Under the pieces are notes generated by a model. That model did not search any database. It had not been told where the DNA came from and saw only the letters and a program-made list of their open reading frames with translations. Positions 12,124 to 52,344 of a DNA stretch of 53,919 nt are shown here, one piece after another. Origin of the DNA: a virus (Duplodnaviria > Caudoviricetes); IMG/VR virus record IMGVR_UViG_3300029171_000010, positions 1 through 53,919 of that record; one strand, written 5' to 3'. Position 1 is the stretch's first letter. Every line of letters begins with the position of its first letter. Both the position numbers and the translations under genes were made by a program.

Positions 12124-12138
12124 CAGGTATGATATACT
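12120..12138 (+). promoter_or_regulatory. Short-spacer promoter-like site
   Basis: TTGACA-ggtatga-TATACT (7-bp spacer). Confidence 0.6.
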
Positions 12139-15973: not shown

Positions 15974-15975
15974 CC

Positions 15976-16179: not shown

Positions 16180-16180
16180 C

Positions 16181-16784: not shown

Positions 16785-16785
16785 C

Positions 16786-24876: not shown

Positions 24877-25154
24877 ACGGCTGCGGCTTGTTTCATGTAC
24901 TCACCCATTTCCTGCCACTGCCACAACTCAATTTCTTCCGCTTCTTCGGGCGTGATTTTGAGCGCGGCAGCGATAACCGGAATGAGATCATCCCATTCGT
25001 TTGTTTTCTGGGCTTTGTCAAGCATCTTTAAAACTTTGAGCTTAACGCGCCCTTGGGTGATGGATGCCTGTTTGGTTCGACCGTCGTCAAACTCAATCGT
25101 GAAGGTGTACGTTTTGCGGCCTTCAATGACTGCTGTTCCCGCTTGTTCGCTCAT
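24846..25154 (-). CDS. Tail assembly chaperone (gpG-like)
   Basis: Between tail tube and TMP; slippery site near 3' end. Confidence 0.8.
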   Translation of the reverse strand: MSEQAGTAVIEGRKTYTFTIEFDDGRTKQASITQGRVKLKVLKMLDKAQKTNEWDDLIPVIAAALKITPEEAEEIELWQWQEMGEYMKQAAAVPNESAPTTE

Positions 25155-26236
25155 TAGTTAATCATCTCCTGTTGCCCGCGTCGTACCACCAAAACGGTGC
25201 CACGCCCCGCTGCGGGCACGCTTTCGTTATATTTACTAAACCAATTGGCGGTTACAATACTGTTACCTTCCTGATCGTCTAGCGCGTCAAACTTGGTGTA
25301 CTTGATGGGCAAGTCGATCTGAAGGAGGTTCTGCGTAAAGCCGGTGCCGAGTGGAATGGTGCCACCCACCCAGCTCATGCGGGCAAGCATTGCCTGTTGA
25401 TCGCGCCAGGCTTGTTTTTGTCCAGCGGTGCCGCCTGCGGATTGCGATCCGGTCGCTTGGTGCTCAAACGTGAATTGGCCGTCGATCTCGTAGCCAGTAA
25501 ACACGGCAGTGTGGAAGTAGATCGATCCGCTGTCGATACTGAACTTCGGCTCGAACATCTCTTTGATGTTAACTTCAAAACCAAGAATATTGCCCGATGG
25601 GACGCGGGTTGCACCATACGTTGCACCGCTGACTGCCGGATCAAGATAGATTGATCCCCGCCCCGCCACGATGGTTTCGACCGGCGTAACAATGGTGCCG
25701 ATATTACTGAACGATCCACTAGCATTGGTACGTTCGACACTACGGAATATCCACTGGCTTTCGACTTTGATCGCTTCCCCGCCTGCACCGCTGAGCTTAA
25801 TCTCATTCACCAGGCCATACGAGCCGACTTCCGCTTCACCGCCTAATCCTTGCGCGGGTTCGCCTGCCTCAACCGTGAATGACTGTTGTGGCCAGACAGT
25901 AGACGCTGGCAAGGGAAAATAAAACGATACTGCCGATCCTGACGCGCCGTGGGCGCTGCCGCCCGCGCTGCCAAAGCCAGCGGCAGCAAAGATAACAGGT
26001 AACTGCTCAAAGGTAGCTTCGGTTTCACCGAGGGTAATCGCGCCCATCAGTTTGGCAATGTAGCTACGGTCAGTACCACCGAAAACACCGACTAACTCTT
26101 CAACATTCGTTACTTCACGTCGATCGTCGAACATCTTCGCCATGCCGCGCCAGATAAAACGCGGGGCAACTTGTGTGCCGGGGGTAGCTTCGAGGCGGAG
26201 TCGCACACTACGCAACTCCTTACGGCCTTGGGACAT
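25154..26236 (-). CDS. Major tail tube protein
   Basis: Size, position, AAGGAG RBS. Confidence 0.78.
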   Translation of the reverse strand: MSQGRKELRSVRLRLEATPGTQVAPRFIWRGMAKMFDDRREVTNVEELVGVFGGTDRSYIAKLMGAITLGETEATFEQLPVIFAAAGFGSAGGSAHGASGSAVSFYFPLPASTVWPQQSFTVEAGEPAQGLGGEAEVGSYGLVNEIKLSGAGGEAIKVESQWIFRSVERTNASGSFSNIGTIVTPVETIVAGRGSIYLDPAVSGATYGATRVPSGNILGFEVNIKEMFEPKFSIDSGSIYFHTAVFTGYEIDGQFTFEHQATGSQSAGGTAGQKQAWRDQQAMLARMSWVGGTIPLGTGFTQNLLQIDLPIKYTKFDALDDQEGNSIVTANWFSKYNESVPAAGRGTVLVVRRGQQEMIN

Positions 26237-26256
26237 GGTGCAACTCCTTGCGAATC

Positions 26257-26380
26257 AAAAAGGGCGGTGCTCGTGATGAGCACCGCCCTAAACGGGTAGC
26301 GTGAATTGTCAGTATTCCATTGTGATGCTGGCAAGTTCCCGCTACCAGTAATCTACGAGTAGTATAGCACACCTATGCAA
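26257..26380 (-). promoter_or_regulatory. Short-spacer promoter, leader and terminator before the tail operon
   Basis: TTGCAT-8-TATACT; CTGACAATTCACGCTACCC; 12-bp stem plus T-run. Confidence 0.75.
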
Positions 26381-26383
26381 GTG

Positions 26384-26857
26384 CTACCAGAGTTCGCGAA
26401 TGGGTAGCGTAATCCGAAACCCACTATACGGCGTCGCACCCACCGCCAGATCGGTCACAATCCCGCTATCGCTTGGCTTGCGTTCGCCCCATTCCACGGT
26501 AACTTGATTTTGTGTCGCGGTTGGGTTCGCAAGCGCCGTGGGGTAGCCGTTTTGATCAAGGCTAAACCATTTGTCGATAAACGCATCAAGGAGTGTTACT
26601 GCCAGCGTGGATCGGCCTGGCATAGTGTTCTGCCCAAGCGCCTCGACAAATACGAGGATCGTGTACGTACGATCCGTGCGTTTCTTGCTGCCAAAGTGTT
26701 CGCGACTCCAATCGCCCGCTTCTGGCCATGTGAGCGCCATGGGGAGGCGCACACTATCGGCGGTCTGCGGGTATTTGCTGAACTCTGGGGCATACCTTAG
26801 TCCAGAAATTGAACGGTTTACATTCTGAATTAAGTCAATCGTTGTGCTGAGTGTCAT
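26384..26857 (-). CDS. Probable tail terminator / neck protein
   Basis: Size and position before tail tube. Confidence 0.55.
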   Translation of the reverse strand: MTLSTTIDLIQNVNRSISGLRYAPEFSKYPQTADSVRLPMALTWPEAGDWSREHFGSKKRTDRTYTILVFVEALGQNTMPGRSTLAVTLLDAFIDKWFSLDQNGYPTALANPTATQNQVTVEWGERKPSDSGIVTDLAVGATPYSGFRITLPIRELW

Positions 26858-28196
26858 TTAGTTTCCTCCACCACCAGAGCCGTCCGTTTGTCATCACGTC
26901 GGGCAGGTGTCGTTGTACGGCGGCCTGTACCCCTGGTGCATAATAGTCATCGCCGCATACAATGCCGCCATCCACCAGACGCGGCAAGAACGTTATGAGT
27001 TGATCGCTGACGCTCTGTTCATCGTGGGCGGCATCAAGGTGGATAAACGCGAGCGGATCGGTGTTGCGTTCTGCCCAGACCCGCCAGTCGCAGCGCTTTG
27101 GTTCGATATAGAGCAGTCCGAACGATTCGATATTGCGCAAGAACTGCCGAAACACGTCACGCTGCTGCGCAGCCTCAATGGTAGGATGATCAGGCGATTC
27201 GTCGCTGTTGCCTTGCCACGTATCCACCGCGTACAACGTGCGTTCACCAAGGCCATGTGCAATGGCAATCGTTGACACACCCTCCCAGCTTCCAATCTCA
27301 ACACATGCGCCCGTTGGCGGCGCATAGCTGGCAATCTTGGCAAGGATGGTACTGTGTGCGGCGTTCGTCCATCCTTCGTGAAATGTCGGTGCATAGTCGC
27401 TATAGAAATGCCGCACCCATGTCATCGGCTGCTCATAGACGGCATGCGGAAGATCGGTTGCCCAATCAATCGCAAAGTTCTGCCATGCGCGCCCGTATAC
27501 ATCCGATCCGTTCGCAATGCGTTCGGCAATCGTTGCCTCATCGCGGTGTTCAGGGTGATTGAGTTCCTGGTGCAGAAATGATTCAATCTTGGTTTTGACA
27601 TACTCTGGGCCACCAAAGTACGAAAAGTGCCAGCCCGCGTTATGGGCATGCATGATACGCGGAAACCCGCCGCGTTCCTGCCCCGCATAGCGCACCCCAT
27701 CCGCCCCAAGTGCCTGTACATTGGCGTACTGCGTGGCTCGTGTACCAAACCACTGGGCATCGCGGGCAGTGTGGTTGAATGTGTAGTAATGCAAGCGTTG
27801 CACTGCTACGACGATAGCATCGGATGGTAACTGATAGAGTGCTTGCACGAACGCCCGGCGCGGGATTTCGTCGCAATCACTAATCAGAATCATGTCGTCG
27901 TGACTGAGGTGCAGGCTGGCTAACGCATCGGCGATGGCATTGCGCTGCGCAATTTCACGCCGCCATGTCCAGAGCAACCCATCGCCATCAGGAAGATCGG
28001 CATTCCAGATTACCAACTTATGCGCATACGGCTGGAAGCGATCAAAGTTGGCGCGCAAGTGGCTATCCTTCGGCGCGCCTGCATGCGTGCGATTGCCTTC
28101 TACGATAACAAACAGATCGACAATTGGATCAAGATCGGCCATGCGAAGTGCCAGTAGATCGCTTTCTTGGAAGTAGGTTACACAATCAATGATCAC
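26835..28196 (-). CDS. GT17-like glycosyltransferase fused to class I SAM methyltransferase
   Basis: MIIDC..E.DLL.LR, REIAQRN, SDCDEIP, GWHFSYFGG; C-terminal EIGSWEG, IHLDAAH, GGIVCGDDY. Confidence 0.9.
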   Translation of the reverse strand: MIIDCVTYFQESDLLALRMADLDPIVDLFVIVEGNRTHAGAPKDSHLRANFDRFQPYAHKLVIWNADLPDGDGLLWTWRREIAQRNAIADALASLHLSHDDMILISDCDEIPRRAFVQALYQLPSDAIVVAVQRLHYYTFNHTARDAQWFGTRATQYANVQALGADGVRYAGQERGGFPRIMHAHNAGWHFSYFGGPEYVKTKIESFLHQELNHPEHRDEATIAERIANGSDVYGRAWQNFAIDWATDLPHAVYEQPMTWVRHFYSDYAPTFHEGWTNAAHSTILAKIASYAPPTGACVEIGSWEGVSTIAIAHGLGERTLYAVDTWQGNSDESPDHPTIEAAQQRDVFRQFLRNIESFGLLYIEPKRCDWRVWAERNTDPLAFIHLDAAHDEQSVSDQLITFLPRLVDGGIVCGDDYYAPGVQAAVQRHLPDVMTNGRLWWWRKLNDTQHND

Positions 28197-28467
28197 CTGC
28201 TACCTCCAGCGTATAGCTCTGACTTGCACTGTCGCCACTAAAATCGTAATCAGTACATGCAGCACCACTAGAAACCGCATGCGAATATCCGTCTGGCCAG
28301 TAATCTAAACGCACCCCAACCGGCATCGGCTTTTTGCAAAAAATGCAGCACGGATCGTATGCTCTCCATCCGCCTGTGTGTTTGCTGGCGTACTTCAACC
28401 AACGGCCATTATAACGATAGATTTGTTCAGCTAGCGGATCATCAGGGAGTTGATCGCTTTTTTTCAT
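28186..28467 (-). CDS. Hypothetical protein
   Basis: Overlaps neighbours; CIFC. Confidence 0.55.
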   Translation of the reverse strand: MKKSDQLPDDPLAEQIYRYNGRWLKYASKHTGGWRAYDPCCIFCKKPMPVGVRLDYWPDGYSHAVSSGAACTDYDFSGDSASQSYTLEVAGDH

Positions 28468-29660
28468 CCTGGCACCTCGATCACCGCCATGCCATTACAC
28501 GGTCTGACAAATGTTACCACCCAGTCGCGTTCAGCGCAATAGCGCTCCGTCGCCACCCGTACACCGGGGAAGGTTTCGGTATCGTGAATGCAGATCGTAC
28601 CACCTGGCTTTACCAGATGCCCCCAGATTGAGAGTTCAGCGGCGACATGATCTTCGGTATGGATCGTGTCAATCAAGAGCAGGTCGCACGGTAGCGCTTT
28701 CTTTAACACCTTAGTGGTTTGCATATCCGTACTACTGGCCTGTACGAACATCCAAAGCGGATGCCCCGCCGCAACCTGTGCCGATTGCGGATCAATATCC
28801 ACACTCCACACCCGCCCGCCATGACGCTCTACACCTGCGAGGAGTGCCATGGTAGACACACCGGATCGGGTGCCAAGTTCGATAACGTTGCCCGCCGCCT
28901 TGGCAAACAATAGCGGCAAGTGATGCTGAATGTCGCTTTGTGTAGCACATTGCTGCATATAGCGGCGGTAGGTTTCCGTTTCGGGTTGCTTTGCGACGAC
29001 ACGCGCCACACTGCGAATAAACGTTTCGCGATTCTGCTCAAATGATGCGCCGTGATTACGCAGCGCCCCTGCGGTTTGCCCGCCTTTATGCTGCACTGGC
29101 CACGCCGTCTGTACCAGTTTAATCCCTGACTGCAACGCACGCAGACAAAGGTCGTTATCTTCCCAATAGGGATGAGGGTAGTTAACGCTGTCCCATGGGC
29201 CGTAAGGTTGAATGAGTTGATTGTTGCCTTGGATGCCTAGTTGTTCCCACGTTGCCCGCGTCGCCGCAAGGCACCAACCCTCCAAGTACGGCCAATGATC
29301 GCCAAACAGGAATTGCGCGGCAAGGGCAGGGCCATACAGCGCCCCATCCCGCACGTCATGTGCGACGGATTGTAGCCACTTCGGATCGCCTGCAATGTCG
29401 CTGTTCATAAAGATAACAATTTCACCCGTAGCCACGGCATAGCCTTGGTTATTGGCGGCAGCAAATCCGGCGTTGACATCGTTACGCAGATAGATACCGC
29501 TGCGCTCTTCAGTGAACGCTTTGAGCGCTGTAGCGTTCGTGTCGTCACTAGCGTTGTCAATCGTGACAATTTGGATGTCCTGCGGAATAGCGGCAGCGTA
29601 ATCACGAAGTAAAGTATCGGCACCGTTTTTCCATGGGGTAATGATACTAATGGTTGTCAT
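28464..29660 (-). CDS. GT2 glycosyltransferase fused to class I SAM methyltransferase
   Basis: IDNASDD, GFAAANNQG, FMNSD, WEDNDLC; ELGTRSG, LIDTIH, GGTICIHD. Confidence 0.9.
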   Translation of the reverse strand: MTTISIITPWKNGADTLLRDYAAAIPQDIQIVTIDNASDDTNATALKAFTEERSGIYLRNDVNAGFAAANNQGYAVATGEIVIFMNSDIAGDPKWLQSVAHDVRDGALYGPALAAQFLFGDHWPYLEGWCLAATRATWEQLGIQGNNQLIQPYGPWDSVNYPHPYWEDNDLCLRALQSGIKLVQTAWPVQHKGGQTAGALRNHGASFEQNRETFIRSVARVVAKQPETETYRRYMQQCATQSDIQHHLPLLFAKAAGNVIELGTRSGVSTMALLAGVERHGGRVWSVDIDPQSAQVAAGHPLWMFVQASSTDMQTTKVLKKALPCDLLLIDTIHTEDHVAAELSIWGHLVKPGGTICIHDTETFPGVRVATERYCAERDWVVTFVRPCNGMAVIEVPG

Positions 29661-29881
29661 GCTTGCGCCTCCGTTCTCCGCCGTAATTCGTTTTCGAGCG
29701 CGTTTTGTTCGTCAACCCAACGAATGCACAACTCAGTAATAATGTCGTCCGGTAATCCATGTTCAATTGCAAGATTGCGATATTGTTTACACGCGAGCAC
29801 ACGAAACAACATGCCAGGCATAATAGAGGTAAGATCGTTTGTGATCATGTCAGTGTATTGTTGTTTTTGTTCGGCGTTCAC
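29657..29881 (-). CDS. Hypothetical protein
   Basis: GTGA/ATGA coupling. Confidence 0.55.
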   Translation of the reverse strand: MNAEQKQQYTDMITNDLTSIMPGMLFRVLACKQYRNLAIEHGLPDDIITELCIRWVDEQNALENELRRRTEAQA

Positions 29882-31095
29882 TTCGTCACCTCCAGCACGC
29901 TACGCGGTTCTACAATGCGCAGCACGCCGCGCTGGTGCTCTCGTTCAAGTTTGTCGGTAATCGCCGCAAGCGTTGGCTTCCAGTGCGCTTCTTTGACGGC
30001 TTCGATCATGTAGGCGCTGGCACCGGCGAGCGCTTTGGCGCGGAGTGATTCGCGCTCACCCGCTACCCGCAAACGTTTCTCCATCGTATCGAAGGCAAAC
30101 GCAATGGCATCAGGTTGCGGGAGAAACACATAGCTCATCTGTTTATCGTAGTAGTGGAATGCGTCGGCTTTGTCAATCGCGCATCCGGCAAACAGCAGTT
30201 CAGCGCTAGCCGTCCAATCGCCCACAATCACCGGCGTACCGCATGCTTGCGCTTCCAGTGTGGGAATACCAAACCCTTCGCCAATCGAAACGGTGTTCAC
30301 CACATCCATGGCACTATAGAACGTGCGCATATATTCGATAGGCAATCCGCGATCATAGGCATCTTGATCGATGAAATGGACATACGGAGTAATGCCGAGC
30401 TGTGCGAGTTGGCCGGGGAGATTGATTGCACCCTCGCGGCCTTGCTCGCCCGCATGAGTGTGCAGGTACAGGCGCGCATGCGGGTTTACTCGAAGATAGC
30501 GCGCAAACGCTTCGATATTCTGTGGCCACGCTTTACGGCTGGGATCGCTGCCACGATTGACGGCCACCATGCCAATCGCGAATGTCTCTGGCGCAATGCC
30601 GAGCTTTTCGCGCGCATCGGGTACATGGTAGTAGTCATTAGGATTGATCGTGTGTGGCGTGTAGCCAGGGCTGAACCCGACATTGCGTAACTGCTCCCAG
30701 CCAAAGCGCGCATAGGCAATCTGATGATAGCTATGTTGACGAAGCATGGACACAATTGGCTCAGGGATCGGATCGTGATCCACGGGGATCATGGGCACCC
30801 AGCGCACAGGGATGCGCCACGATTGCGGCTGATACACCCATAAATCTTTCAGGGTGACGACAATATCGGGGTTGAATTGTTGCACGGCTGGCTTGATCGC
30901 GTCGTTCCCAAAGCCGTCCATGCCGCCGGGGAACACGGTAAAGCCGTTCCATTGTTGACTGGCACCATGCAGCCCGAACGCCGCCACGTAGGCCACGTCA
31001 TGTCCCAGATCGCGCAAGATCGGGCCGATCATCGCCGCTTGCACTGCATATCCAGAGGTCGCCCATGGAGCATCGGAAACTAAAAGGATTCGCAT
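29878..31095 (-). CDS. GT4 (GT-B) glycosyltransferase
   Basis: SGYAVQ, RK, GEGFGIPTLEAQACGTPVI. Confidence 0.92.
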   Translation of the reverse strand: MRILLVSDAPWATSGYAVQAAMIGPILRDLGHDVAYVAAFGLHGASQQWNGFTVFPGGMDGFGNDAIKPAVQQFNPDIVVTLKDLWVYQPQSWRIPVRWVPMIPVDHDPIPEPIVSMLRQHSYHQIAYARFGWEQLRNVGFSPGYTPHTINPNDYYHVPDAREKLGIAPETFAIGMVAVNRGSDPSRKAWPQNIEAFARYLRVNPHARLYLHTHAGEQGREGAINLPGQLAQLGITPYVHFIDQDAYDRGLPIEYMRTFYSAMDVVNTVSIGEGFGIPTLEAQACGTPVIVGDWTASAELLFAGCAIDKADAFHYYDKQMSYVFLPQPDAIAFAFDTMEKRLRVAGERESLRAKALAGASAYMIEAVKEAHWKPTLAAITDKLEREHQRGVLRIVEPRSVLEVTK

Positions 31096-31275
31096 CTACC
31101 CTCCCGCCCAGGTAATCCCGCGTCGTTGCGTACCACAGCAGCGCGGGTAGCTGCCTGTCCCCCGTCGGGTAAGTGGTACGCAGAAGAAACAAAAAAAGCG
31201 GCGGCAAACCCCGAAGGGCGTACCACCGCTCGATTGAGCAGCGCTCATTACGGATAGTATAGCATAGGATTGCAA
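31096..31275 (-). promoter_or_regulatory. Short-spacer promoter, terminator and structured leader of the GT cassette
   Basis: TTGCAA-8-TATACT; TTCG-loop hairpin plus T7; second 10-bp stem tgcgtaccac/gtggtacgca. Confidence 0.7.
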
Positions 31276-31290
31276 GAGGGGAATACGAGG

Positions 31291-31872
31291 CTAGATCGCA
31301 CCGCCAGAGCGTGAGCGATACGGCGCGAGCATGTAGCGCACATCATCCGGCATGCCGCGCCCCATGGGCTGCACGCCTGCTTCTTGGAAGCCGATCTGAT
31401 CGTTCGGCGTAATATCTTTTTGGCGGAAAAGAAACGTCGCGTACCGCTCGGTTGCGCGTTGAATATCCGCTGGTGCAACCGTGCCATACCCCCATGTGCC
31501 ACTGACGATCATATCCTGATCGGTATTCCAAGTATAGGTATAACTGCTCTTCAGTCGCATAATACGGTACGGTGGCCCTTCACGCGGCTCTAGCCACACA
31601 CTACCCACGGGCACCACGCGCCCATCACCAAGCGTGAGCGCCGTTAGGGTGTGTAAATCTTCTTGCAACCAAAAGGCGTTCTCACGTACCCGATCTTGCT
31701 CGTACCGATTGACATAGACAGTCCCCGGTGTGCCAACGAAGTTGCGGCGCGTATAGCTCGTGATTGCCATTTCTGCATCGTCAATACAATCTTGCAGCAC
31801 ATTATCGGCATCCGTTTCGGTGCCAAGCCCCATATACGATTTTAATCGCGCCAGTGTAATATAGCGACTCAT
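31291..31872 (-). CDS. Head-tail connector (gp6/gp15-like)
   Basis: YITLARLKSYMG...AITSYTRRNF...WGY..PADI...MLAPYR. Confidence 0.85.
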   Translation of the reverse strand: MSRYITLARLKSYMGLGTETDADNVLQDCIDDAEMAITSYTRRNFVGTPGTVYVNRYEQDRVRENAFWLQEDLHTLTALTLGDGRVVPVGSVWLEPREGPPYRIMRLKSSYTYTWNTDQDMIVSGTWGYGTVAPADIQRATERYATFLFRQKDITPNDQIGFQEAGVQPMGRGMPDDVRYMLAPYRSRSGGAI

Positions 31873-33824
31873 ACTGCCCTCACATCCCATGCATCAAACA
31901 CACAGCCATCATCAACATCTTCACGATAGAGTCCCCAACGTGTACCCGTGAGTGTCACACTGATTGGGTAGCTCATCACATTCACGCCGTTTAGAAACAC
32001 GTGGCATAAATCTGCGCCGCCGTTTGGATCACCGGCAATCTCAAGCGCCAGTGTATAGGTGGTACTCACGGCGTAATACGCGCCGACGTTAATTTTATGG
32101 CAAATAGCCAAACTGCCTGCGCCTTCGAGGAGTTCTATTTCATCATTACTTGGTTGACTCGTATCCTTGAACAACCGCACCACAAGCGCCGTGTTGTCAT
32201 CCGTGTAGCGTGCCACAACACCAGCACGAATCGTGTTGGTTGGGAATGACGACGGCGTAATGACGTTCACAGATGCGCGAGCGCTTGTGGTACTGAGTTG
32301 CTGAGTAACGAAGTTATTGCCAACGGCAGCACTGACGGTTGCTTGATTGCTTTGGATTGTCCATGTACCCGCGTGCTCTGTCCACGCCCCGCCCGCTTCA
32401 GCGGTATGTGCATTCAGGCGTGTGCCGTTGGTGTCGGTGAAGGTATCAGTAGCCAGTGTTGCGCCAAGTGTGCGCTGTGCGGGTAATGCGCCAGTAATCA
32501 GGCCAGTAAGCGAAAAGGTAAGCGGGTAGACATACAGGTTGTCCCAGCGTGCGCCGTTGCCGCTGGTGGTGGAAAACAACCCCACACCCCGCGCGGTTAA
32601 AAAATTATTACCACTATCAGTAACCCATGTTGTACCGAGTGCCGTGATAACCCCGGTGCTTAAGCGCTCTGAGAAAAAACGATAGCGATTGTCTTTGCGG
32701 CCAATATACCAACGAACAGTTTCACCGGCGGTAAAACTGAACGTCCCCGCACTCGCAATGGTGCTGTCAAAGCCACCTGCTTTCCATACCTGAATGGTAA
32801 CAGTTGTAGCGCTGCCGTTATTCCAGATACGAATATAGTTGCTTGAATCTTGCACCGCAATCAGCACGCCAACACCGTTTGTTGCGGGCGTTGGCCATGT
32901 AATATCGCACACCATCCACCCGTCACCGTTGCTTGGCAGTGCATCGGGGTAGGTGACATTCATAAACCCGCTGCCGCTTGGGTTGTAGGCTTGGTTGCTG
33001 CTTATCCCCCATGTGCCGACATTTGACACCCACGGCGTACCAACACTACTGCCGCTATCGGCACGGGTGAAAGTGTCGCTTGTCACATACTGCGTGGCAA
33101 GGGCAGGGGCATCAATAATGCGCACGTCCTGCAATTGATTGCCGTTGGGATACGGGATTGTGGCCAGCGCTTGCATGCTTGGATAGAGTGGGGTGGTCGT
33201 TCCGGTATGCGACGGCCACACGATGCGCGCATTCGGGTACGCGGGCACTCCGATTGGATCGTTGCTATTGAAGAGGTTGCCCGCGTCATCTGCAATGGCG
33301 CTCATCCACACCAGTGCGCCAGTCGTGTACAGTGTGACACCAACGAGGTATTGTACAGGGCGAAAGGCGCGGCTATCGCTGATGACAATCTTCTGGCCAA
33401 TGGCAGCAGCGGCCATGGTTGCGCCTTCGGTGACAAGCTGGTGCCCAACCGTGCGCGGATCGGTCGTGTTGGTCGCAATGTCCCAGCCGAACACGGCGGC
33501 CAGTGTCGATCCGCTGGTGTCTTCGGCAATGAACAGCCCCACCAGTGTGCGCCCGGCGACACGATCAAACCCAGCCCCGCCGGATTGTGTCCAGATGACT
33601 TTGCTATTGCCCCATGTCGGTGATGAGGATTGACCACCCCCGCGTAAGGCTTTTTGGTTCGCAAGGATTTTCCACAGCGAACCGGTGGCATCGCGTGCGC
33701 CTGCACCCGGCTCGGCGGCTGCGTCAACAACCGGATTGATCGCCGTACTGAACCAATCACGCAAGAGCGCATACGCGCTACTGAGGTGCGAGCGGCGAAA
33801 GAGGGTGAGCAGCGAATGCCCCAC
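31869..33824 (-). CDS. Beta-rich putative virion protein with tandem lectin-like domains
   Basis: Repeated DTFT...GTW.I.SNQA...[W/F]D units; lies in head module. Confidence 0.6.
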   Translation of the reverse strand: MGHSLLTLFRRSHLSSAYALLRDWFSTAINPVVDAAAEPGAGARDATGSLWKILANQKALRGGGQSSSPTWGNSKVIWTQSGGAGFDRVAGRTLVGLFIAEDTSGSTLAAVFGWDIATNTTDPRTVGHQLVTEGATMAAAAIGQKIVISDSRAFRPVQYLVGVTLYTTGALVWMSAIADDAGNLFNSNDPIGVPAYPNARIVWPSHTGTTTPLYPSMQALATIPYPNGNQLQDVRIIDAPALATQYVTSDTFTRADSGSSVGTPWVSNVGTWGISSNQAYNPSGSGFMNVTYPDALPSNGDGWMVCDITWPTPATNGVGVLIAVQDSSNYIRIWNNGSATTVTIQVWKAGGFDSTIASAGTFSFTAGETVRWYIGRKDNRYRFFSERLSTGVITALGTTWVTDSGNNFLTARGVGLFSTTSGNGARWDNLYVYPLTFSLTGLITGALPAQRTLGATLATDTFTDTNGTRLNAHTAEAGGAWTEHAGTWTIQSNQATVSAAVGNNFVTQQLSTTSARASVNVITPSSFPTNTIRAGVVARYTDDNTALVVRLFKDTSQPSNDEIELLEGAGSLAICHKINVGAYYAVSTTYTLALEIAGDPNGGADLCHVFLNGVNVMSYPISVTLTGTRWGLYREDVDDGCVFDAWDVRAV

Positions 33825-33825
33825 A

Positions 33826-34200
33826 TCACACCGGCCTGGTAATTAAGACAAATGTCCCCGCCGCGCTTTGCACCGTGCCGCCCGTCGAAAGCCCGGTGCG
33901 TAATCGCAACCAGTGAATTGATGGCATGTCTGATGGCGACGGCAAATACAACATGGCCGTGCCATACAACGTGCCAATGTTGTATTCCGTGGTACCACTA
34001 TAGAAATTGAGCCACGTTCCCCCGTTGTGAGGCGGCGTAGGATCGGACGTGACTTGAAATGATAAAGGAGCGGTGGTGAACGTACCTGGAATGGCGACCC
34101 CGATCAGGGCTTCTCCATTCAGATACGCTGATCCGCTAAATGAACCGCTTGCAGGAATAACAACCTGCTGTGCGCCCATGAGATTCTGGAAGTTTGGCAT
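33826..34200 (-). CDS. Putative capsid decoration / minor virion protein
   Basis: Position after MCP; G/T/S-rich beta protein. Confidence 0.6.
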   Translation of the reverse strand: MPNFQNLMGAQQVVIPASGSFSGSAYLNGEALIGVAIPGTFTTAPLSFQVTSDPTPPHNGGTWLNFYSGTTEYNIGTLYGTAMLYLPSPSDMPSIHWLRLRTGLSTGGTVQSAAGTFVLITRPV

Positions 34201-34249
34201 CGTTGTTACTCTTTCGTTGGAGCGGGGACAGCACCCGCTCCAATTCGCA

Positions 34250-34564
34250 TTATCCACCAAAGGCGAAAATACCAATGGTTCCGCCGCCTGCTGCAGCTGC
34301 GGTGCCAAGGAGGCCACGCACAATCACCGATCCGCTTGCGAAGAGCGATGGATCGATTTGCGCGCCACTCACCGTGCCTGCGCCAATATTCGCGCCGTAT
34401 GCAAATTGACCGGCAAACGCCACCGGAAACCCAATTCCCACGGTTGACACACCTGACGCAAGGCTGGTGGTTCCCCACCAGACTCGCGCCGCTGTCTGTA
34501 CCCCGTTGATCGTGGTAAACGGGGTGCCGCCCTGCAAGAACCCGCTTGGAGTGTTATAAGACAT
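34250..34564 (-). CDS. Putative minor virion protein
   Basis: AGGAGGT RBS; Gly-rich. Confidence 0.65.
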   Translation of the reverse strand: MSYNTPSGFLQGGTPFTTINGVQTAARVWWGTTSLASGVSTVGIGFPVAFAGQFAYGANIGAGTVSGAQIDPSLFASGSVIVRGLLGTAAAAGGGTIGIFAFGG

Positions 34565-34574
34565 GATCTACCTC

Positions 34575-35021
34575 CTAGCTGAGTGCAGTTCCGTAGGCAA
34601 CCAGATTCAACGCACCGGATGTGGTTCCGGCAGTACGTGGCCAGGTACTCAGGATTTCAAGCGCCCCGCGCCATGTGCCACCCGATTCCACAGTACCAGC
34701 AGCGGCAATATACGGATAGTTGGTTCCCGATGCGGCGAATGTACCGAGCACATCGCTCTTGATGTCAATCACTGCACCTGCACCGTTGCCAGAGCCGACC
34801 GGCAGACTAGCGATCAAGCGTGGCGATGAACCGGCGGTGTTGGTTACGCCATATACGTTAATCGTGCCGTGGTTGGCAATGGTGCCAATAAACCGCACGG
34901 AATGGTATTCGTACTCACCTGCTGGTGCAACCCCGGCAGCGGTGCCGCCAAAGCTGGCACCAATAAATGTGCCAGATGCCAACAGGGTTGAGAGTGCATT
35001 TTCAAACAGATTGTGTGCCAT
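34575..35021 (-). CDS. Putative head decoration / cement protein
   Basis: Immediately after MCP. Confidence 0.65.
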   Translation of the reverse strand: MAHNLFENALSTLLASGTFIGASFGGTAAGVAPAGEYEYHSVRFIGTIANHGTINVYGVTNTAGSSPRLIASLPVGSGNGAGAVIDIKSDVLGTFAASGTNYPYIAAAGTVESGGTWRGALEILSTWPRTAGTTSGALNLVAYGTALS

Positions 35022-35022
35022 G

Positions 35023-36417
35023 TTATGCGCTCACTTTCATAGCCGCGATCCCCCACGGGTTGATCACTTGGCCGCCGCCGCGCTTGCGGGCGACGAGGAC
35101 AATATTATTGGTTTTTGCAGTAGTGCTATCGTCATAGCGCATAATGTCCATGCCGATGCGCTCCACAATCAAATACGCGCCCTTTGTGACGAACAGCACC
35201 GGGTAGACGTTCTGAGTATAAGTGGTACCACTTGCGGTTGTGGGCGATGCCAACACTTCGCTTTCGAGGATGTTGTATCCTTCGAGTTGACGGGGCTGTC
35301 CGGCTACTAGTTGATATTGTCGATCCCCCCAAAGATACGCGCCGCTACCGTCTTTGAGTGTTTTGGTAGTACGAACAGTGCCACGACTCATGACCCACGA
35401 TCCGCCCGCGCTGCGATACTGTGATGCGATGGCATACGGCAGATTACGGAACGCATCGCCGGTGAGTGCGGTATTGTTGCCGCTGTTCTGCGATGTAATA
35501 CTGCCATAGGCAAAGGTGTATGGGCCGCCCGTGGTTGCGTCTTTCAGGATGCCTTGTGGCCCGGCAACGCCGTTACCTACCAAGTATTGTTCATCATCAA
35601 ACACCGCAAATGCGCTGGCAAATTGATTTTGCAGATAGTTCAGGATAGCAAGCGATCCTTGGCTATCTTCGATCAAATTCTTACTAACGGCCACATGGCC
35701 CATCATGACATGTACGGGGATGGTGACCTGTCCAAACGTGGCGTTGGTTTCGGCTTGGGTTGCGGTTGGGCTTTCGTCCACCTTGTACACGCGAACCGCG
35801 CCAGTGTAGCGGTCATCGCCGCCGGTGGCGACGGGCATGGTTACGCGATCCCGCGTGGTCGTCATGATCTCGGCAACTTGGCGGACAGCAGTCATGCCCT
35901 GCAAGCGAGTGACAAGGCGGTCGCGAAAGTCTTCTGGCACCAGATAGCCACCGAGGGTATCTTGGCTTTCAATTTGCGTGGCCTTCATTTCGCTAATACT
36001 CATGCCAAGCTGCAAGAATGATTCAACCTGAGATGGGCTGTACACCATAGCACGATGCAGTTGCGGATCGTACTGGCCGGTGCGGATATAGCGCACAAAG
36101 TCAGCACTCTTTGCCCATGCAAACTTGCGATGATCTTGACCGTACAATTCACTCATTACCTGATCCATTGCATCGCCGGTGTCGCCATACTGGCGCATAT
36201 ACCATGACTTGGTCGCAATGTCGGTTGCGGATTGCACGGGGGTTTCGTCCTGCTTCATATCGGGCAGGGGTGGTCGGTTGGCTTCCACTTGGATAGCAGT
36301 CATTGCATCAAGTTCTTTGAGTGCTTTGGCGGCTTCCATTTTTGCGCGAGCCTCATCCAGTTTATTATCAAGGATGAGCTGGCGCGCCTCATTCGTGAGG
36401 GCTTGAAACGTGCTCAT
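35023..36417 (-). CDS. HK97-fold major capsid protein with delta domain
   Basis: GGYLVPEDF, GNGVAGPQGIL, LKDGSGAYLW, LEGY. Confidence 0.95.
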   Translation of the reverse strand: MSTFQALTNEARQLILDNKLDEARAKMEAAKALKELDAMTAIQVEANRPPLPDMKQDETPVQSATDIATKSWYMRQYGDTGDAMDQVMSELYGQDHRKFAWAKSADFVRYIRTGQYDPQLHRAMVYSPSQVESFLQLGMSISEMKATQIESQDTLGGYLVPEDFRDRLVTRLQGMTAVRQVAEIMTTTRDRVTMPVATGGDDRYTGAVRVYKVDESPTATQAETNATFGQVTIPVHVMMGHVAVSKNLIEDSQGSLAILNYLQNQFASAFAVFDDEQYLVGNGVAGPQGILKDATTGGPYTFAYGSITSQNSGNNTALTGDAFRNLPYAIASQYRSAGGSWVMSRGTVRTTKTLKDGSGAYLWGDRQYQLVAGQPRQLEGYNILESEVLASPTTASGTTYTQNVYPVLFVTKGAYLIVERIGMDIMRYDDSTTAKTNNIVLVARKRGGGQVINPWGIAAMKVSA

Positions 36418-38966
36418 GCGTACTCCAATTCTAAGAGGTCGAGTTCTATCATCAGCCGCTCACGCTCCATCTTCATGGCATCAGCCATCTCTATGGAGTC
36501 TGTCTCTGGGCTGTCTATATAAGCGGGCGGAAACTCCGCCGCGTAGATAGCTTTAAGGGCGCTCACGGGCAGTAAGCGTGGTTCTGCGGGGGTTGGGGTA
36601 AGGCTGGCGGCCATCAGTGGCCAGCGGGTTACTTCGTTCGTGTCACCGCGCCGGGTGCGCTTCACCAGATGCGGGGCGCTATCGCTACTCAGTTTCAAAG
36701 CGCCTTGTTTTACCATTTCGTTGATGGCGCTATAGTATTTGTGCGCTTTGTCGAGTTGCCCCTCTAACCAGATGCCCACATCATCACGCATAGCCTTTGT
36801 CCAGGTGCCAATAATCGGCACATCGGCGGTAGCTTCATCCTGTGCGTGGTGGTAGAGCATCGGGCGCTGCGTCCAAGCATCAAGCCAGAAATCAGTAGCT
36901 TTCGTGAAGTAATCACGCATTTGTGAGAGATCGGGGTTATCCGCATCACCAAAGCGCACGGCGTAGGCTCCGATCTTGCCTTCATCCAGCATCTTGACGG
37001 CATCGCCGATCACCACCCGTGGGGTGTCGTCATCATCTGCTTCGTAGCCGTCTTCGGCTCCGTCAAGCTCACTGATCTCCCACTCTACCCGCGCCCATTC
37101 GCTTTTGTCGGAAAGCTGTACGTCGCCGCTGTCAATCGTGTAGTTAATTTGGTAGGTTTCGCCGTCAATGTCCAGTACGGCGTACTCTGCGTAGACGGTA
37201 ATATCGCAATCTTCTTGCGCGGCTTTTTCGTCGCCGATCACCTCACAAATGGCATCACACACCAGATCGCATTGCGTTTGCAGATCAAGCGCCTTGATTT
37301 CAATTGTCAGGGGTTCATTGGCATCTATCGGCTTATCGTCATTCATGGGCGCGCCTGCATCCCTGAGCGCTCCTAATGTGCCGACTGCAAAACTAACGGC
37401 GCGCTTGAGGTGTTGCTCATCACTGGCACTATGGCGACGGCTGTATTTGATTTCATCCATGTCGGCATCCTTTGTGGCGCGTGGGGTTACGGTTTGACCT
37501 TTATTGAGTCGGGCACGCTCTTGCTGGCTTTCTTTGATGAGCGCTCGTGATTCGGCAAGCAGCGCAGCACGCAGTGTCGGATTGCCACGCGCTGCTTGCA
37601 GTTCAGTGTCAATCTGGCGTTGCCGCGCTTGGCGCTGTGCGTGGTTTTGTTCGGCAATGGCGATAGATTGTTGCCGTCGTTCGGTACTGCTTAACTTTTT
37701 TTCAATCGCCGCTTTACGCTTTTCAAGTTTGGCAACTTGTGGGCTGGCGGGTGGCTTTGTTGGTTTTGTTGGCGTTCGGGCGCTTGGTTTGTCAGGCGCG
37801 CTTGGCGGCGCACCCTTTTCCAGTCCCGCCTCTGGGCTGCGCTTGCCCGTCTTAGGATCGACCTTCCAGAGTCCGCCAATACCGCCGGATGGCTTCTTGC
37901 CTGCCCCACCTCCACCACCAGAACCACGCCCGCCGCCCATATTGGCAAACATCGCCCGATCTTGGGCGGATTGCTTAATTTCGTCCATCTTGGTTTCCCT
38001 TGTGGTAATCTCAATCCCGTTGCGCAATTCGCGGGTACGGCGGGTCGTGCGTGGCTTGTTCGTTTCGGCTTCGCGTTCGGCGTCCTTGATCATCTTGTCA
38101 ATGGCGCGCTGACGGGCTTGCGCTTCGCGTTCGAGGCGGGCACTCGCGTCTTGCAGGGCTGCCCGAAAGCCGCCCACGTTGCCCAACTCCAGCGCTGCCA
38201 GGGCGCGCCGTCCTTGATCAGTGGTATCGCCGTTGGCATCCAGTAAACCCAGATCGCGCATGCGCTCGTTCTCGGCTCCACCATTATCGCGACCTTGCTG
38301 TAAGGCGCTTACGTCATCCGGTTCCAGCCCAACACGGCGAGCGGTTTCGCTTGCGCGCTTGGCACGCTCCTCTAGCTTGGCTTGCTGCTTTTCGTCGGGT
38401 GTCGGTTTGTCTTTACCACTCCCACCCCCACCGCCGCCCTTGGGTTTTTCTTCCTCTGGCTTGGCTTCGGCGGGTGTCATCGCGTCCTTGGCACGGGCGG
38501 TAAGTTCCGCTACTCTGCCTGCATCGCCACCACTGGCCGCGTTGTAGGCTTGTCGTCCTGCGGTGTTCAGTACAATCGTGCCGTCTTTGAGCTTATCGGC
38601 CAGCCCTGCGGCAACCAATGCCTCACCTTGCGCCGCGTCGGGCTGCTGCCCCATTGCTAAGGTGTCCATGGCGGCGGCGTTCTCACCTAAGAGCTTGGCG
38701 CGGTTGGCTTGCGCTTCCTGACGGGCGACAGCTTCCTTTTCTTCCGCTGTTGGCTTGGCGCTCTTTGCGCGGCCTTTGCCTTTTTGTTTACCTTTGGCTT
38801 TGTACTTGCCCCAACGTGCCAGCGATGCGAGGCGGGCTACTTCAGAGCGCGTACGCTTGCCAGGGGTGCCGGTATTGGCGGGCGCACTGCCACCGGCAGT
38901 TTGCTTGGCGCGCTCCGCTTCGGCCATGTCGCCATCAGATTTTAGGAAGTGCATATGCATTGGCAA
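36414..38966 (-). CDS. Prohead protease with ~650-aa N-terminal extension
   Basis: C-terminal GAYAVRFG, LYHH, DDVGIWLEG, SSDS, ASLTPTPAEPR; start uncertain. Confidence 0.85.
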   Translation of the reverse strand: MPMHMHFLKSDGDMAEAERAKQTAGGSAPANTGTPGKRTRSEVARLASLARWGKYKAKGKQKGKGRAKSAKPTAEEKEAVARQEAQANRAKLLGENAAAMDTLAMGQQPDAAQGEALVAAGLADKLKDGTIVLNTAGRQAYNAASGGDAGRVAELTARAKDAMTPAEAKPEEEKPKGGGGGGSGKDKPTPDEKQQAKLEERAKRASETARRVGLEPDDVSALQQGRDNGGAENERMRDLGLLDANGDTTDQGRRALAALELGNVGGFRAALQDASARLEREAQARQRAIDKMIKDAEREAETNKPRTTRRTRELRNGIEITTRETKMDEIKQSAQDRAMFANMGGGRGSGGGGGAGKKPSGGIGGLWKVDPKTGKRSPEAGLEKGAPPSAPDKPSARTPTKPTKPPASPQVAKLEKRKAAIEKKLSSTERRQQSIAIAEQNHAQRQARQRQIDTELQAARGNPTLRAALLAESRALIKESQQERARLNKGQTVTPRATKDADMDEIKYSRRHSASDEQHLKRAVSFAVGTLGALRDAGAPMNDDKPIDANEPLTIEIKALDLQTQCDLVCDAICEVIGDEKAAQEDCDITVYAEYAVLDIDGETYQINYTIDSGDVQLSDKSEWARVEWEISELDGAEDGYEADDDDTPRVVIGDAVKMLDEGKIGAYAVRFGDADNPDLSQMRDYFTKATDFWLDAWTQRPMLYHHAQDEATADVPIIGTWTKAMRDDVGIWLEGQLDKAHKYYSAINEMVKQGALKLSSDSAPHLVKRTRRGDTNEVTRWPLMAASLTPTPAEPRLLPVSALKAIYAAEFPPAYIDSPETDSIEMADAMKMERERLMIELDLLELEYA

Positions 38967-39067
38967 AACAAAAGGGCGGTGATCCAGTGGATCACCGCCC
39001 GTAATAGGGTAGCGTAGGTTGTCAGACGGGGCTATCCCCGTTGCGTGTATTCTAGCATATCTGTCAA
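38967..39067 (-). promoter_or_regulatory. Short-spacer promoter, leader and terminator before the protease/capsid operon
   Basis: TTGACA-7-TAGAAT; CTGACAACCTACGCTACCC; 13-bp inverted repeat plus TTTTGTTTT. Confidence 0.75.
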
Positions 39068-39068
39068 C

Positions 39069-39233
39069 TTAACGCGCCTGTGTCGTATCCTTCAGTGGCA
39101 CGCAACTGATACCGCTCTGGTACGTCCAGCACACCACGCCGTAGTCCTGATCGATGTAGCGGCTTACGGTATCGGACGGCGGCACGCTACACCCCGCGAG
39201 AAGCAACAGAATCACTAGTAATAGTCTGATCAT
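39069..39233 (-). CDS. Small lipoprotein
   Basis: MIRLLLVILLLLAG-C lipobox. Confidence 0.7.
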   Translation of the reverse strand: MIRLLLVILLLLAGCSVPPSDTVSRYIDQDYGVVCWTYQSGISCVPLKDTTQAR

Positions 39234-52324: not shown

Positions 52325-52344
52325 AGTATAGCACAGTGCGTCAA
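52325..52344 (-). promoter_or_regulatory. Short-spacer promoter heading the late arm
   Basis: TTGACG-8-TATACT; back-to-back with early promoter P1. Confidence 0.7.

Follow-up and report, generated by a model that had tools for sequence, protein, structure and literature searches.

The late region of this phage raises a question: how are structural genes expressed when a strong terminator stands almost against their start codons? The window (the whole 53,919-nt stretch of DNA that was analysed) comes from an uncultivated temperate tailed phage, in which family profile searches identified an integrase and an excisionase-family protein. A first-pass annotation had proposed that promoter-leader-terminator units gate the capsid and tail operons; the units and their placement were borne out, and the architecture is kept in relatives. 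A third unit (31275-31191) had been overlooked. It has the same build, lacks a 19-nt motif found in the other two, and lies ahead of glycosyltransferase genes. A strong promoter, a short leader and a strong terminator are therefore placed directly ahead of the capsid (module A), sugar-transferase (module C) and tail (module B) gene blocks. Judged from its sequence, the phage appears to use a lambda-style read-through layout three times, with no recognisable factor to unlock it. The genes concerned are listed here.

36414..38966, minus strand: 850-aa open reading frame, the first gene past module A, whose C-terminus weakly matches a prohead protease
35023..36417, minus strand: major head protein gene (phrog_10, E = 5e-47)
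29878..31095, minus strand: glycosyltransferase gene, the first after module C (phrog_2170, E = 2e-24)
25154..26236, minus strand: tail protein gene (product probably the major tail protein), with AAGGAG plus ATG, 25 nt past the stem of terminator B

Start codons lie 13-25 nt past the terminator stems in modules A and B and about 100 nt past that of module C, where the gap contains a conserved hairpin; counted from the U-tracts, the distances are 13-90 nt. The 13-25 nt gap cannot accommodate a promoter, and with start codons so close behind the terminators, the capsid, glycosyltransferase and tail genes can be expressed only by read-through. The 850-aa frame likely starts at an ATG at 38960, 13 nt past the stem and without a Shine-Dalgarno sequence; in relatives, the first gene begins 12-15 nt past the terminator. 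A sigma-70-like promoter past terminator A (TTGCCA-16-TAAAAT, 38966-38939) was taken as a chance match because it falls inside this likely coding start. A tiny reading frame in leader B (ATG-GAA-TAC-TGA) was also discarded; it is missing from a sister phage (L013/G001).

The promoters of the three modules belong to one class, of which the window holds five members.

39049..39067, minus strand: promoter PA (TTGACA, 7 nt, TAGAAT, with TGc before the -10 element); PWM score 25.6
31256..31275, minus strand: promoter PC (TTGCAA, 8 nt, TATACT, TGc); PWM score 28.2
26361..26380, minus strand: promoter PB (TTGCAT, 8 nt, TATACT, TGc); PWM score 26.0, kept in the sister phage
52325..52344, minus strand: promoter P1 (TTGACG, 8 nt, TATACT), heading the lysis-to-portal block, without a terminator
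12120..12138, plus strand: fifth promoter of the class (TTGACA, 7 nt, TATACT), preceding a 79-aa repressor-like reading frame

The three modules share the compact pattern TTGNNN-N7/8-TGn-TAnAnT. These are promoters of the extended -10 type in which just 7-8 bp separate the -10 element from a TTGNNN hexamer (near -26 to -20 in all five), unlike ordinary -35/-10 promoters; the TTGACA-like hexamer is one helical turn nearer the -10 element than normal, which poses the question of how host polymerase or a phage factor reads them. The five score 25.6-28.2 bits, and the best unrelated site reaches 12.8. Four lie on the late strand, and three of these lead into a terminator 26-72 nt downstream; the block behind P1, in which an endolysin was identified, is reached without one. 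Several leaders carry TA 5 nt after the -10 element, which is accounted for by start-site preference.

Between promoter and gene, the following leader elements were found or predicted.

39026..39041, minus strand: small leader hairpin of module A (ACGGGG-AUAG-CCCCGU), in the minimum-energy and centroid folds
39007..39025, minus strand: copy A of the 19-nt motif, unpaired in the predicted fold
38965..39000, minus strand: terminator A, with a 12-bp stem and 3-nt loop, then TTTTGTTTT; -23.8 kcal/mol, whole-leader z-score -5.3
31191..31247, minus strand: module C leader, with a 5-bp hairpin, a long terminator hairpin (GAGCGGUGG...CCGCCGC) and U7; -23.3 kcal/mol, z-score -5.5
31128..31181, minus strand: long hairpin past terminator C, in the 5'-UTR of the glycosyltransferase operon
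26292..26349, minus strand: long imperfect leader hairpin of module B (predicted fold), with the 19-nt motif (26312-26294) as its 3' strand
26256..26289, minus strand: terminator B, with a 12-bp stem and 5-nt loop, then TTTTT; -23.7 kcal/mol

The stems of terminators A (39000-38974) and B (26289-26261) each comprise 12 pairs, nine of them G-C, and are followed by TTTTGTTTT or TTTTTGATT. Both left arms begin with GGGCGGTG, as first described. The two hairpins rank at the top of 23 terminator-like sites between 20 and 40 kb, a region for which shuffling leads one to expect 22.5 such sites, and whole-leader z-scores are -5.3, -6.7 and -5.5 in the three modules. When the terminator stem is compared across A, B and the sister phage's tail module, 35 of 36 cells are paired (slid controls, 42-67%) and two pairs are changed on both sides, a covariation that carries no statistical power because one orthologue of one module is all that is available. 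At the level of sequence, then, these elements combine a GC-rich hairpin, an immediate U-tract and a compensatory stem change, as intrinsic terminators do. The terminated RNAs would measure about 77 nt (A) and 101 nt (B), and roughly 60-100 nt over the three modules, if transcription starts 7 nt after the -10 element and release occurs about 8 nt past the stem; these lengths agree with the small RNAs of 75-100 nt that the first-pass annotation expected in the absence of antitermination. The module B leader hairpin is also predicted in the sister phage, where A-U pairs have become G-U and one base is shifted. In the 5'-UTR hairpin behind terminator C, both strands of the outer stem differ between the window and the sister phage with complementarity kept (by eye).

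Modules A and B share the motif CTGACAAyyyACGCTACCC (39025-39007 and 26312-26294, minus strand), which has no other match in the window; at least two matches occurred in 0 of 100 dinucleotide shuffles of the window. The copies are identical at 16 of 19 positions and end 6 nt (A) and 5 nt (B) ahead of the terminator hairpin, precisely as the annotation had it. The likeness extends beyond the motif, with the two modules about 80% alike across the whole 65 nt. Module C has the same promoter and a terminator but not the motif, and so the motif cannot be a common key. Exact matches at eight loci in viral_contigs were set aside: all look like coding sequence, none has a terminator, and their number fits chance. 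Across 11 genomes, AATA recurs in seven, and ACTGA, GAATA, TACCC and TCAAT in four each, all within the maximum for k-mers of random sets (95th percentile 8 for 4-mers, 5 for 5-mers). CATCGG/CCATCG alone exceeds the random maximum (4 of 11 vs. 3), but the four phages carrying it are related.

How well is this layout conserved? Among GenBank phages, the window has no relatives at the DNA level, and matches to the capsid and portal proteins do not exceed 32% identity. Four DNA sequencing runs, all from one study, contain the phage, and no RNA run is listed for it. The terminase matches metagenome-assembled genomes of many phyla in genome_contigs (Steroidobacteraceae at 55%; Anaerolineae/Chloroflexota and Armatimonadota at 40-45%), and an alignment of the tail protein against the same collection found no match. 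The sister phage, whose tail protein is 88% identical (DNA, about 72%), retains promoter, leader hairpin, motif (16/19) and terminator in its tail module; terminator C is absent at the corresponding position. Together with the lack of the motif in module C, this absence indicates that gates are gained and lost easily. Module A has no orthologue for comparison, since viral_contigs contains no relatives of the 850-aa and 153-aa proteins and the sister contig ends inside the capsid gene; a search with the 157-aa protein upstream of module B returned only the sister phage again. Where the tail protein is at least 40% identical, a terminator lies directly 5' of its gene at 7 of 12 loci; inspection by eye adds L116 as an eighth, and in L112 the upstream sequence is just 32 nt long. 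Below 40% identity, such a terminator occurs at 0 of 38 loci. At L117 and L120, tRNA genes and not a promoter precede the terminator of the tail gene.

Two more distant phages carry two modules (G003) and three (G004). G004 shares only the terminase with the window, and G003 only a few structural proteins. The block before the terminator is constant within each of these genomes (17 nt in G003, about 20 nt in G004) and different between genomes, while loops vary and, in G004, one stem pair changes from A-T to G-C. On sequence grounds, this pattern fits a sequence-specific reader better than it fits recent duplication.

A dedicated reader was sought in several ways. The window yielded no gene for Q, N, NusG, ANTAR or a sigma factor, the same outcome for Q and N as at first pass. 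Antiterminator families were absent from scans against Pfam (50 ORFs), PHROGs (40 ORFs) and NCBIfam (55 small ORFs); Pfam and NCBIfam gave no CAT/PRD or ANTAR domain protein, and the profile scans gave no match to Phage_AlpA. An HTH_17/excisionase-family ORF (10748-11209), probably the excisionase, adjoins the integrase. Small CxxC...CxxC ORFs at 7662-7925 (plus strand), 9541-9708 (plus strand) and 44457-44654 (minus strand) have weak, generic zinc-ribbon matches only; the partial G003 and G004 contigs contain no credible zinc-ribbon ORF, and no factor common to these phages and the window is visible. At the RNA level, the Rfam search suggested by the annotation returned 0 matches at gathering score over the whole window (Rfam 15); over the three modules, the best sub-threshold matches (E up to 10) reached 10-22 bits vs. 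gathering scores of 33-95. The idea that CTGACAA is boxA-like was not upheld: neither boxA core quoted in PMC2724277, in the part of that paper available (rrn, UGCUCUUUA; lambda, CGCUCUUA), occurs in the leaders, which have only CGCU in common with boxA, and the hairpin 5' of the motif in module A is the reverse of the nut order (boxA, spacer, boxB hairpin). The same portion of that paper has the NusA KH domains binding spacers with AUA or AUU, such as the rrn spacer acaauuua; a candidate of this kind, ACAAUUCA, is present in module B and absent from module A.

The reading that we favour, with a probability of roughly 0.45 as judged from sequence comparison, is that the units may be gates like lambda PR'-tR', opened by an antiterminator with a genome-specific element. 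Host RNA polymerase would fire from the extended -10 promoter into the strong intrinsic terminator just before the ribosome site, and by default only RNAs of about 60-100 nt would be made; a phage-induced factor would then let polymerase pass, and the structural genes would be expressed. At the capsid and tail gates, the factor's specificity element is most likely formed by the motif and the invariant outer stem of the terminator (GGGCGGTG/CACCGCCC), the motif keeping a fixed 5-6 nt from the terminator. We infer that the hairpins terminate, that such a factor exists, and that it acts at the motif, read either as RNA or as DNA. Predicted hairpin strength (-23 to -24 kcal/mol) and the U-tracts are consistent with this reading, and by analogy with lambda, a temperate phage might be expected to keep a default-off lock on its late genes. 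Processive antitermination of a capsid operon has a precedent in BrrG, according to the available part of 10.1101/2024.11.20.624540, and AlpA (described below) is another precedent. Against the gate reading, module C lacks the motif, which is thus not needed for every gate, and P1, of the same promoter class, lacks a terminator. The motif is predicted to be buried in a hairpin in module B and free in module A, which would be awkward for a single RNA-binding reader. The profile scans that matched no antiterminator family, and the comparison with G003 and G004 that yielded no common factor, likewise tell against it.

What else could the units be? A self-contained RNA switch, with the motif pairing to the terminator's left arm or to upstream sequence and a ligand, tRNA, protein or transcription speed deciding, seems highly improbable. 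Transcripts cut at the terminator loop do pair GCUA.CCC with GGG.CGGU in the minimum-energy fold of both modules. Across A, B and the sister phage, 20 of 21 cells of this helix are standard pairs, one G-U becoming A-U and an A·C mismatch becoming A-U in the sister, with zero both-side changes in a three-sequence set that has no statistical power. However, the antiterminator pairing of motif and left arm that had been proposed gains no more energy than shuffled upstream sequence does (-8.5 and -8.3 vs. -8.7 and -7.7 kcal/mol in A and B; shuffles were at least as good in fractions of 0.46 and 0.39), and none of 18 module terminators in 11 genomes reached the 0.05 level. A helix of about -8 kcal/mol would moreover have to compete with a terminator of -24 kcal/mol. 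The proposed alternative pairing with upstream sequence stands for the tail module, where GGTAGCGGGAA and TTCACGCTACC pair within the minimum-energy hairpin, and falls for the capsid module, whose motif is unpaired and whose own transcript lacks the upstream partner; even in module B, a G-to-A change in the sister phage breaks a pair of that hairpin. An aptamer would not fit into the 20-45-nt leaders of A, C, G003 and G004, and Rfam offers no match even at E up to 10. A reader of DNA would tolerate the differing RNA contexts of a motif whose sequence is kept. The motif could be a degenerate promoter copy that pauses polymerase before the terminator (through re-captured sigma or a promoter-bound factor), or a site like the stoperators, at which repressor forms a roadblock. 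Its layout, CTGACA-N8-TACCCT, resembles the promoter's TTGACA-N8-TATACT, and the sister phage has a perfect TTGACA at that place; the five-promoter matrix ranks motif A 28th and motif B 642nd of 215,596 positions, in effect one observation from a five-sequence matrix since the copies are paralogues. In addition, the PB hexamer plus 2 nt is identical to the half-site of operator-like palindromes beside an HTH gene. But the last position of the -10-like part varies (T, G, A), there are just two sites and none in module C, and the operator 8-mer matches five times vs. 1.6 expected. We regard a DNA-level site as quite improbable.

Two further explanations, each unlikely in our estimation though appreciably less so than the switch or the DNA site, take the short RNAs or the terminators at face value. 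The units might mainly encode sibling small RNAs, each some 60-100 nt long and made up of an unpaired stretch (at the 5' end or in the middle) and a U-tailed terminator hairpin, the motif being a common seed or protein-binding site, and late genes being read by polymerases made terminator-resistant elsewhere, e.g. from P1. The geometry would yield discrete short RNAs; in G003 and G004, the invariant block starts at or near the predicted transcript start and spans nearly the whole 5' tail, the usual build of base-pairing small RNAs; and a further promoter/21-nt/terminator unit lies antisense to early genes (53450-53407 and 1526-1483). There is also a precedent in Stx phages, where, in the part of PMC7547250 available, the terminated PR' transcript is a regulatory small RNA. 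This explanation, however, leaves unexplained why each unit is followed, 13-25 nt further on, by a structural gene of the same orientation, with read-through still required; the motif of module B is paired within a hairpin, and nine-mer matches with one mismatch reveal no evident complementary target. Small RNAs would also be compatible with the gates as a by-product. Alternatively, partly efficient terminators and strong internal promoters could form constitutive leaky attenuators or insulators that set fixed transcript ratios with no dedicated regulator, the likeness of the motifs reflecting duplication of a terminator cassette. The lack of a regulator in the profile scans, gain and loss of modules between close relatives, the 80% likeness of A and B over 65 nt (as expected of paralogous copies) and the tRNA-preceded tail terminators are all in keeping with this. 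Yet placing a strong promoter ahead of a strong terminator, the reverse of the usual order, undoes insulation and makes for wasted transcription, and the compensatory stem change and within-genome invariant flanks argue for sequence-specific selection rather than passive copies.

Returning to antiterminator-opened gates, a wider claim can be framed, which we consider doubtful: that a clade of uncultivated siphoviruses distributes its gates, each sub-operon having its own promoter and start-abutting terminator, with a genome-specific, terminator-adjacent element read by a co-evolving antiterminator (protein or RNA) of no known family. If true, phages would have an alternative to the single Q/PR' switch that is specific to terminators and works at multiple sites. 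Late-gene antitermination is known almost only from lambdoid Q, N and a few newer cases (AlpA, BrrG). Here, the layout recurs in environmental phages, with two to three gates per genome and the terminator fused to the start codon, and a genome-specific sequence is tied to the terminator rather than the promoter, without a known antiterminator gene. Should the factor exist, it would be new, with a short and easily mapped target, and the three gates would be a ready reporter system; should the terminators merely be leaky, the units would be ordinary operon punctuation.

Among known systems, the lambdoid late switch (PR', tR' and Q in lambda, 21 and 82) comes first to mind. There, too, the phage is temperate, and transcription towards its late structural genes starts at a promoter and soon meets an intrinsic terminator; a short RNA is the default, and the genes are expressed through read-through, a parallel drawn here at the level of sequence. 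Lambdoids have one gate at the head of the late region, whereas the window has three within it and leaves its P1 block (lysis, terminase, portal) ungated. In lambdoids, a Q-family gene usually lies just upstream of the late promoter; none was found in the window with Pfam, PHROGs or NCBIfam. The lambdoid cassette further has a -10-like element for sigma-dependent pausing early in the transcript and a factor-binding element within the promoter; what the window shows in these places is the TTGNNN hexamer of its five promoters, the TA noted above and a motif that is weakly promoter-like. Also unlike the lambdoid arrangement, the window's conserved element adjoins the terminator and not the promoter, and its terminators abut start codons.

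RNA-based antitermination offers other parallels. The RNA-binding antiterminators of the BglG/LicT-RAT and ANTAR types recognise sites that overlap the 5' arm of a terminator. The conserved sequence of the window similarly lies directly 5' of the left arm at a fixed short distance and is partly complementary to it, but this complementarity is not above chance, and a dual-hexaloop or RAT-like fold is absent. The put elements of HK022, RNAs some 70 nt long that fold into two hairpins, affect many terminators from a distance. Like them, the window has paired similar RNA elements downstream of two promoters and no recognisable protein factor; its shared part, in contrast, is 19 nt, is folded differently in each copy and is fixed 5-6 nt from one terminator. 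Neither put nor any other cis-acting antiterminator RNA was matched in Rfam.

AlpA of Pseudomonas aeruginosa is, in the available part of PMC7969949, a small winged-helix protein of prophage origin that acts at two promoters, both of them followed by a terminator just before the target gene; it uses a DNA site between -35 and -10, within which bases -25 to -22 are needed. Several target promoters and an intrinsic terminator just before the first gene are features in common with the window, and these key bases coincide with the position of the TTGNNN hexamer. The AlpA site (GGGACG-N5-GGTA) is unrelated to TTGNNN, and AlpA, as far as that part of the paper goes, is independent of terminator sequence, whereas the window conserves a terminator-adjacent block. 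Finally, StxS, the regulatory small RNA that early termination of the PR' transcript yields in Stx phages, as the available part of PMC7547250 presents it, suggests that the short leader RNA ended at a late gate may have a function of its own; in place of one such RNA, the window is predicted to make three different ones, two of them with a common motif.

A 19-nt motif, CTGACAAyyyACGCTACCC, is common to the leaders of module A and module B, the promoter-leader-terminator units ahead of the capsid and tail genes. It occurs exactly twice in the window, at 39025-39007 and 26312-26294, both on the minus strand, and none of 100 dinucleotide shuffles yielded two matches to it. Each copy lies 6 nt (A) or 5 nt (B) before a 12-bp hairpin with nine G-C pairs, followed by a U-tract. 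At -23.8 and -23.7 kcal/mol, these hairpins are top-ranked among the terminator-like sites listed for 20-40 kb. A and B share the outer 8 bp of the stem exactly and differ in its apical part by compensatory changes. From motif through U-tract, the mean column identity of A, B and the orthologue in a sister phage is 80%. The shared motif before strong terminators, as described in the first-pass annotation, is thus confirmed.

Must transcripts of the capsid and tail genes cross these hairpins? The AAGGAG-ATG start of the tail gene is 25 nt downstream of terminator B. Behind terminator A, the first in-frame ATG comes 13 nt after the stem, without a preceding Shine-Dalgarno sequence; the genes behind the equivalent terminators of two distant phages, G003 and G004, have the same kind of start. 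Since no promoter fits between terminator and start codon, any mRNA of these genes has to come through the hairpin, and read-through is, as judged from the sequence, obligatory. A sigma-70-like match just past terminator A falls within the probable coding start and was taken as chance.

Upstream of both modules is a TGc-extended -10 (TAGAAT, TATACT), with TTGACA or TTGCAT just 7-8 bp further up. The class has five members in the window.

Compact promoters
52344-52325, minus strand: P1, heading the lysis-to-portal block, with no terminator
39067-39049, minus strand: PA, of module A
31275-31256, minus strand: PC, of module C
26380-26361, minus strand: PB, of module B
12120-12138, plus strand: preceding a repressor-like ORF

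A promoter matrix made from these same five sites scores them at 25.6-28.2 bits, and the best other independent site of the window at 12.8. The TTGACA-like hexamer sits about one helical turn nearer the extended -10 than a normal -35 does. The compact layout likewise appears in L013 (the sister phage) and in the further loci L108, L116, L113 and L053/L054.

One further unit had been overlooked in the first pass, as had P1 and the plus-strand promoter.

Additional gate
31275-31191, minus strand: module C, between the adaptor and glycosyltransferase genes, of the same build as A and B

Module C runs from a promoter (TTGCAA-8-TATACT) through a 5-bp hairpin to a long terminator hairpin (-23.3 kcal/mol) with U7; the 19-nt motif is absent from it. 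At this junction the sister phage has a promoter (TGGTATACT) and lacks a terminator. The 5'-UTR of the glycosyltransferase operon contains a long hairpin (31181-31128, minus strand) with two TACCCG loops, ending near a GGGAGGG ribosome site; it is kept in the sister phage, with the outer stem changed on both strands.

These gates are set in a temperate phage of the siphovirus type. The window, 53,919 b long, covers an entire IMG/VR virus record and has an estimated completeness of 88%. We found no DNA-level relatives of it among GenBank phages, and no tRNA genes or Rfam families in it.

Gene blocks
about 1-17,300, plus strand: early block, with VapE-type primase-helicase, MT-A70 methylase, excisionase-family HTH protein and tyrosine integrase
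from 52,344, minus strand: late block, with endolysin, small and large terminase, portal, 850-aa protein (a weak prohead-protease match), major head protein, head-tail adaptor, glycosyltransferases, methyltransferases, tail protein, tape measure, Dit and further tail proteins

Along the late strand, with tA, tB and tC for the three terminators, the order is P1, lysis/terminase/portal, PA-tA, protease/capsid/adaptor, PC-tC, sugar transferases, PB-tB, tail genes. The gated block between head and tail genes (26835-31095, minus strand) encodes a GT family 17 protein, a TylF-like methyltransferase, a GtrB-like protein and a further GT, which suggests sugar modification of the virion or host surface. 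Immediately upstream of module A, an 85-aa ORF (39187-39444, minus strand) has a lipoprotein-like N-terminal signal, read by eye as a hydrophobic stretch followed by AGC. Between the lysis and terminase genes, an 891-aa ORF without a family match (45926-48601, minus strand) contains internal repeats (47553-47793 vs. 48009-48249, 71%). A 162-aa ORF (12420-12908, plus strand) has a hit to BTG (PF07742, E = 5e-14, above cut-off), an animal anti-proliferative/deadenylase-adaptor domain and an oddity in a phage.

The record ends, 1-1979 and 52369-53903, are diverged direct repeats (1-651 vs. 52369-53020, 94%; 666-774 vs. 53301-53409, 93%; 1454-1979 vs. 53383-53903, 90%). Most probably the contig extends beyond one full turn of a circular or permuted genome and joins two strain variants, so that the genes at 74-328 and 52442-52696 would be one gene seen twice. 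Opposite the early genes, at 53450-53407 and 1526-1483 (minus strand), is an antisense promoter/short-leader/terminator unit, laid out as TGGTATACT (or TGGTAGAAT), about 21 nt, GCGCCGCT-loop-AGCGGCGC and T4. It would yield an oop- or sar-like antisense RNA of ~55 nt.

Are the gates conserved? The single sister phage (L013, the same contig as G001; 22.5 kb) has a tail protein 88% identical to that of the window and DNA 68-73% identical over window positions 31836-25656. It keeps module B, with the same promoter and leader hairpin, 3/19 changes in the motif and two G-U pairs in the terminator. The contig stops inside the capsid gene and so offers no module A orthologue for comparison; protein searches around module A likewise returned none. 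Excluding four loci with <60 nt upstream, a strong terminator was detected ahead of the tail gene, 27-53 nt from its aligned start, at 7 of the 12 loci whose tail protein is 40-88% identical and at 0/38 of those below 40%. The terminator of L116 has two mismatches and was seen by eye, and L112 offers just 32 nt of upstream sequence. In L013, L108 and L110 the terminator is preceded by an extended -10 of the window type (matrix scores of 15.4, 13.6 and 11.3; 0.5% of random 170-nt stretches reach 11), and inspection by eye shows one in L116 too. Two distant relatives have tRNA genes upstream of the terminator, where the window has its promoter (L117:724-801 and L120:282-356): a tRNA-Leu and an unusual tRNA whose anticodon was called as four bases.

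Modules also occur in G003 (two) and G004 (three), phages that have little beyond terminase in common with the window. They stand 10-25 nt ahead of the start codon, most with a -10 element upstream. The block before the terminator is identical among copies within a genome (17 nt in G003, about 20 nt in G004); the loops vary, and one stem pair changes from A-T to G-C.

How might the hairpins be passed? Of the explanations considered, a self-contained RNA switch, in which the motif pairs with the left arm of the terminator as an antiterminator, is the least supported. The minimum-energy fold of transcripts cut at the terminator loop does pair the two, but the energy gain (-8.5 and -8.3 kcal/mol) is no better than with shuffled upstream sequence (-8.7 and -7.7); the fraction of shuffles pairing at least as well was 0.46 and 0.39, and arm pairing reached 0.05 at 0 of 18 module terminators in 11 genomes. 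Covariation of this helix, with three sequences, has no statistical power. The proposed anti-antiterminator pairing is confined to the tail module: in module B a long imperfect hairpin takes in the entire motif as its 3' strand, and the sister phage retains this hairpin through A-U to G-U changes and a pair gained at the base, with one C-G pair lost. The copy in module A stays unpaired in the predicted fold, and its sole upstream complement precedes the transcription start.

The idea that CTGACAA is boxA-like found no support, the boxA cores quoted in PMC2724277 being absent. No known RNA family was detected in the modules, even at E up to 10, and a cross-genome consensus was not significant against the best k-mer of random sets, except for one hexamer common to four related phages. 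On the promoter matrix, the two motif copies rank 28 and 642 of 215,596 positions, and the sister phage has a perfect TTGACA at the motif's place. Because it resembles the phage's own compact promoter layout, the motif could be read on DNA; we offer this as a lead only.

Scans of the window's ORFs (50 with Pfam, 40 with PHROGs, 55 small ones with NCBIfam) detected no Q, N, NusG-like, ANTAR, CAT/PRD or sigma protein, in agreement with the earlier failure to recognize a Q- or N-like gene. Other candidates can be named.

Candidate factors
52442-52696 (copy at 74-328): 84-aa double-HTH protein beside operator-like palindromes
10748-11209: excisionase-family protein
three small zinc-ribbon ORFs

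The 14-bp palindromes flanking the small HTH gene (19-32, 52387-52400, 52714-52727) have the half-site TTGCAT or similar. Eight bases of PB, TTGCATAG, equal one operator half plus 2 nt, an 8-mer counted five times vs. 1.6 expected.

Regulated read-through by a putative factor is the most likely mechanism, to which we assign a probability of about 0.45. At the capsid and tail gates, the motif and the invariant outer stem would together form the factor's specificity element. The model is weakened by the motif-less module C, by the different RNA contexts in which the two copies of the motif stand, and by the lack of any candidate shared with G003 or G004. The short terminated RNAs may themselves have a function, as does StxS (PMC7547250). 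Alternatively, the terminators may be constitutive attenuators.

Promoter-leader-terminator units ahead of phage late genes are of an already known kind. Unusual in the window are the multiple gates within a single late region, terminators fused to start codons, a genome-specific block linked to the terminator, the compact promoters as a class and the absence of a known antiterminator; a limited literature search found no description of this combination. For BaGTA, a processive antiterminator of a capsid operon, BrrG, is described (10.1101/2024.11.20.624540). The lambda late gate has the same layout as the window modules, and AlpA-type control comes closer still: according to PMC7969949, AlpA acts at several promoters, each with a terminator immediately before the target gene, from a site centred near -25.
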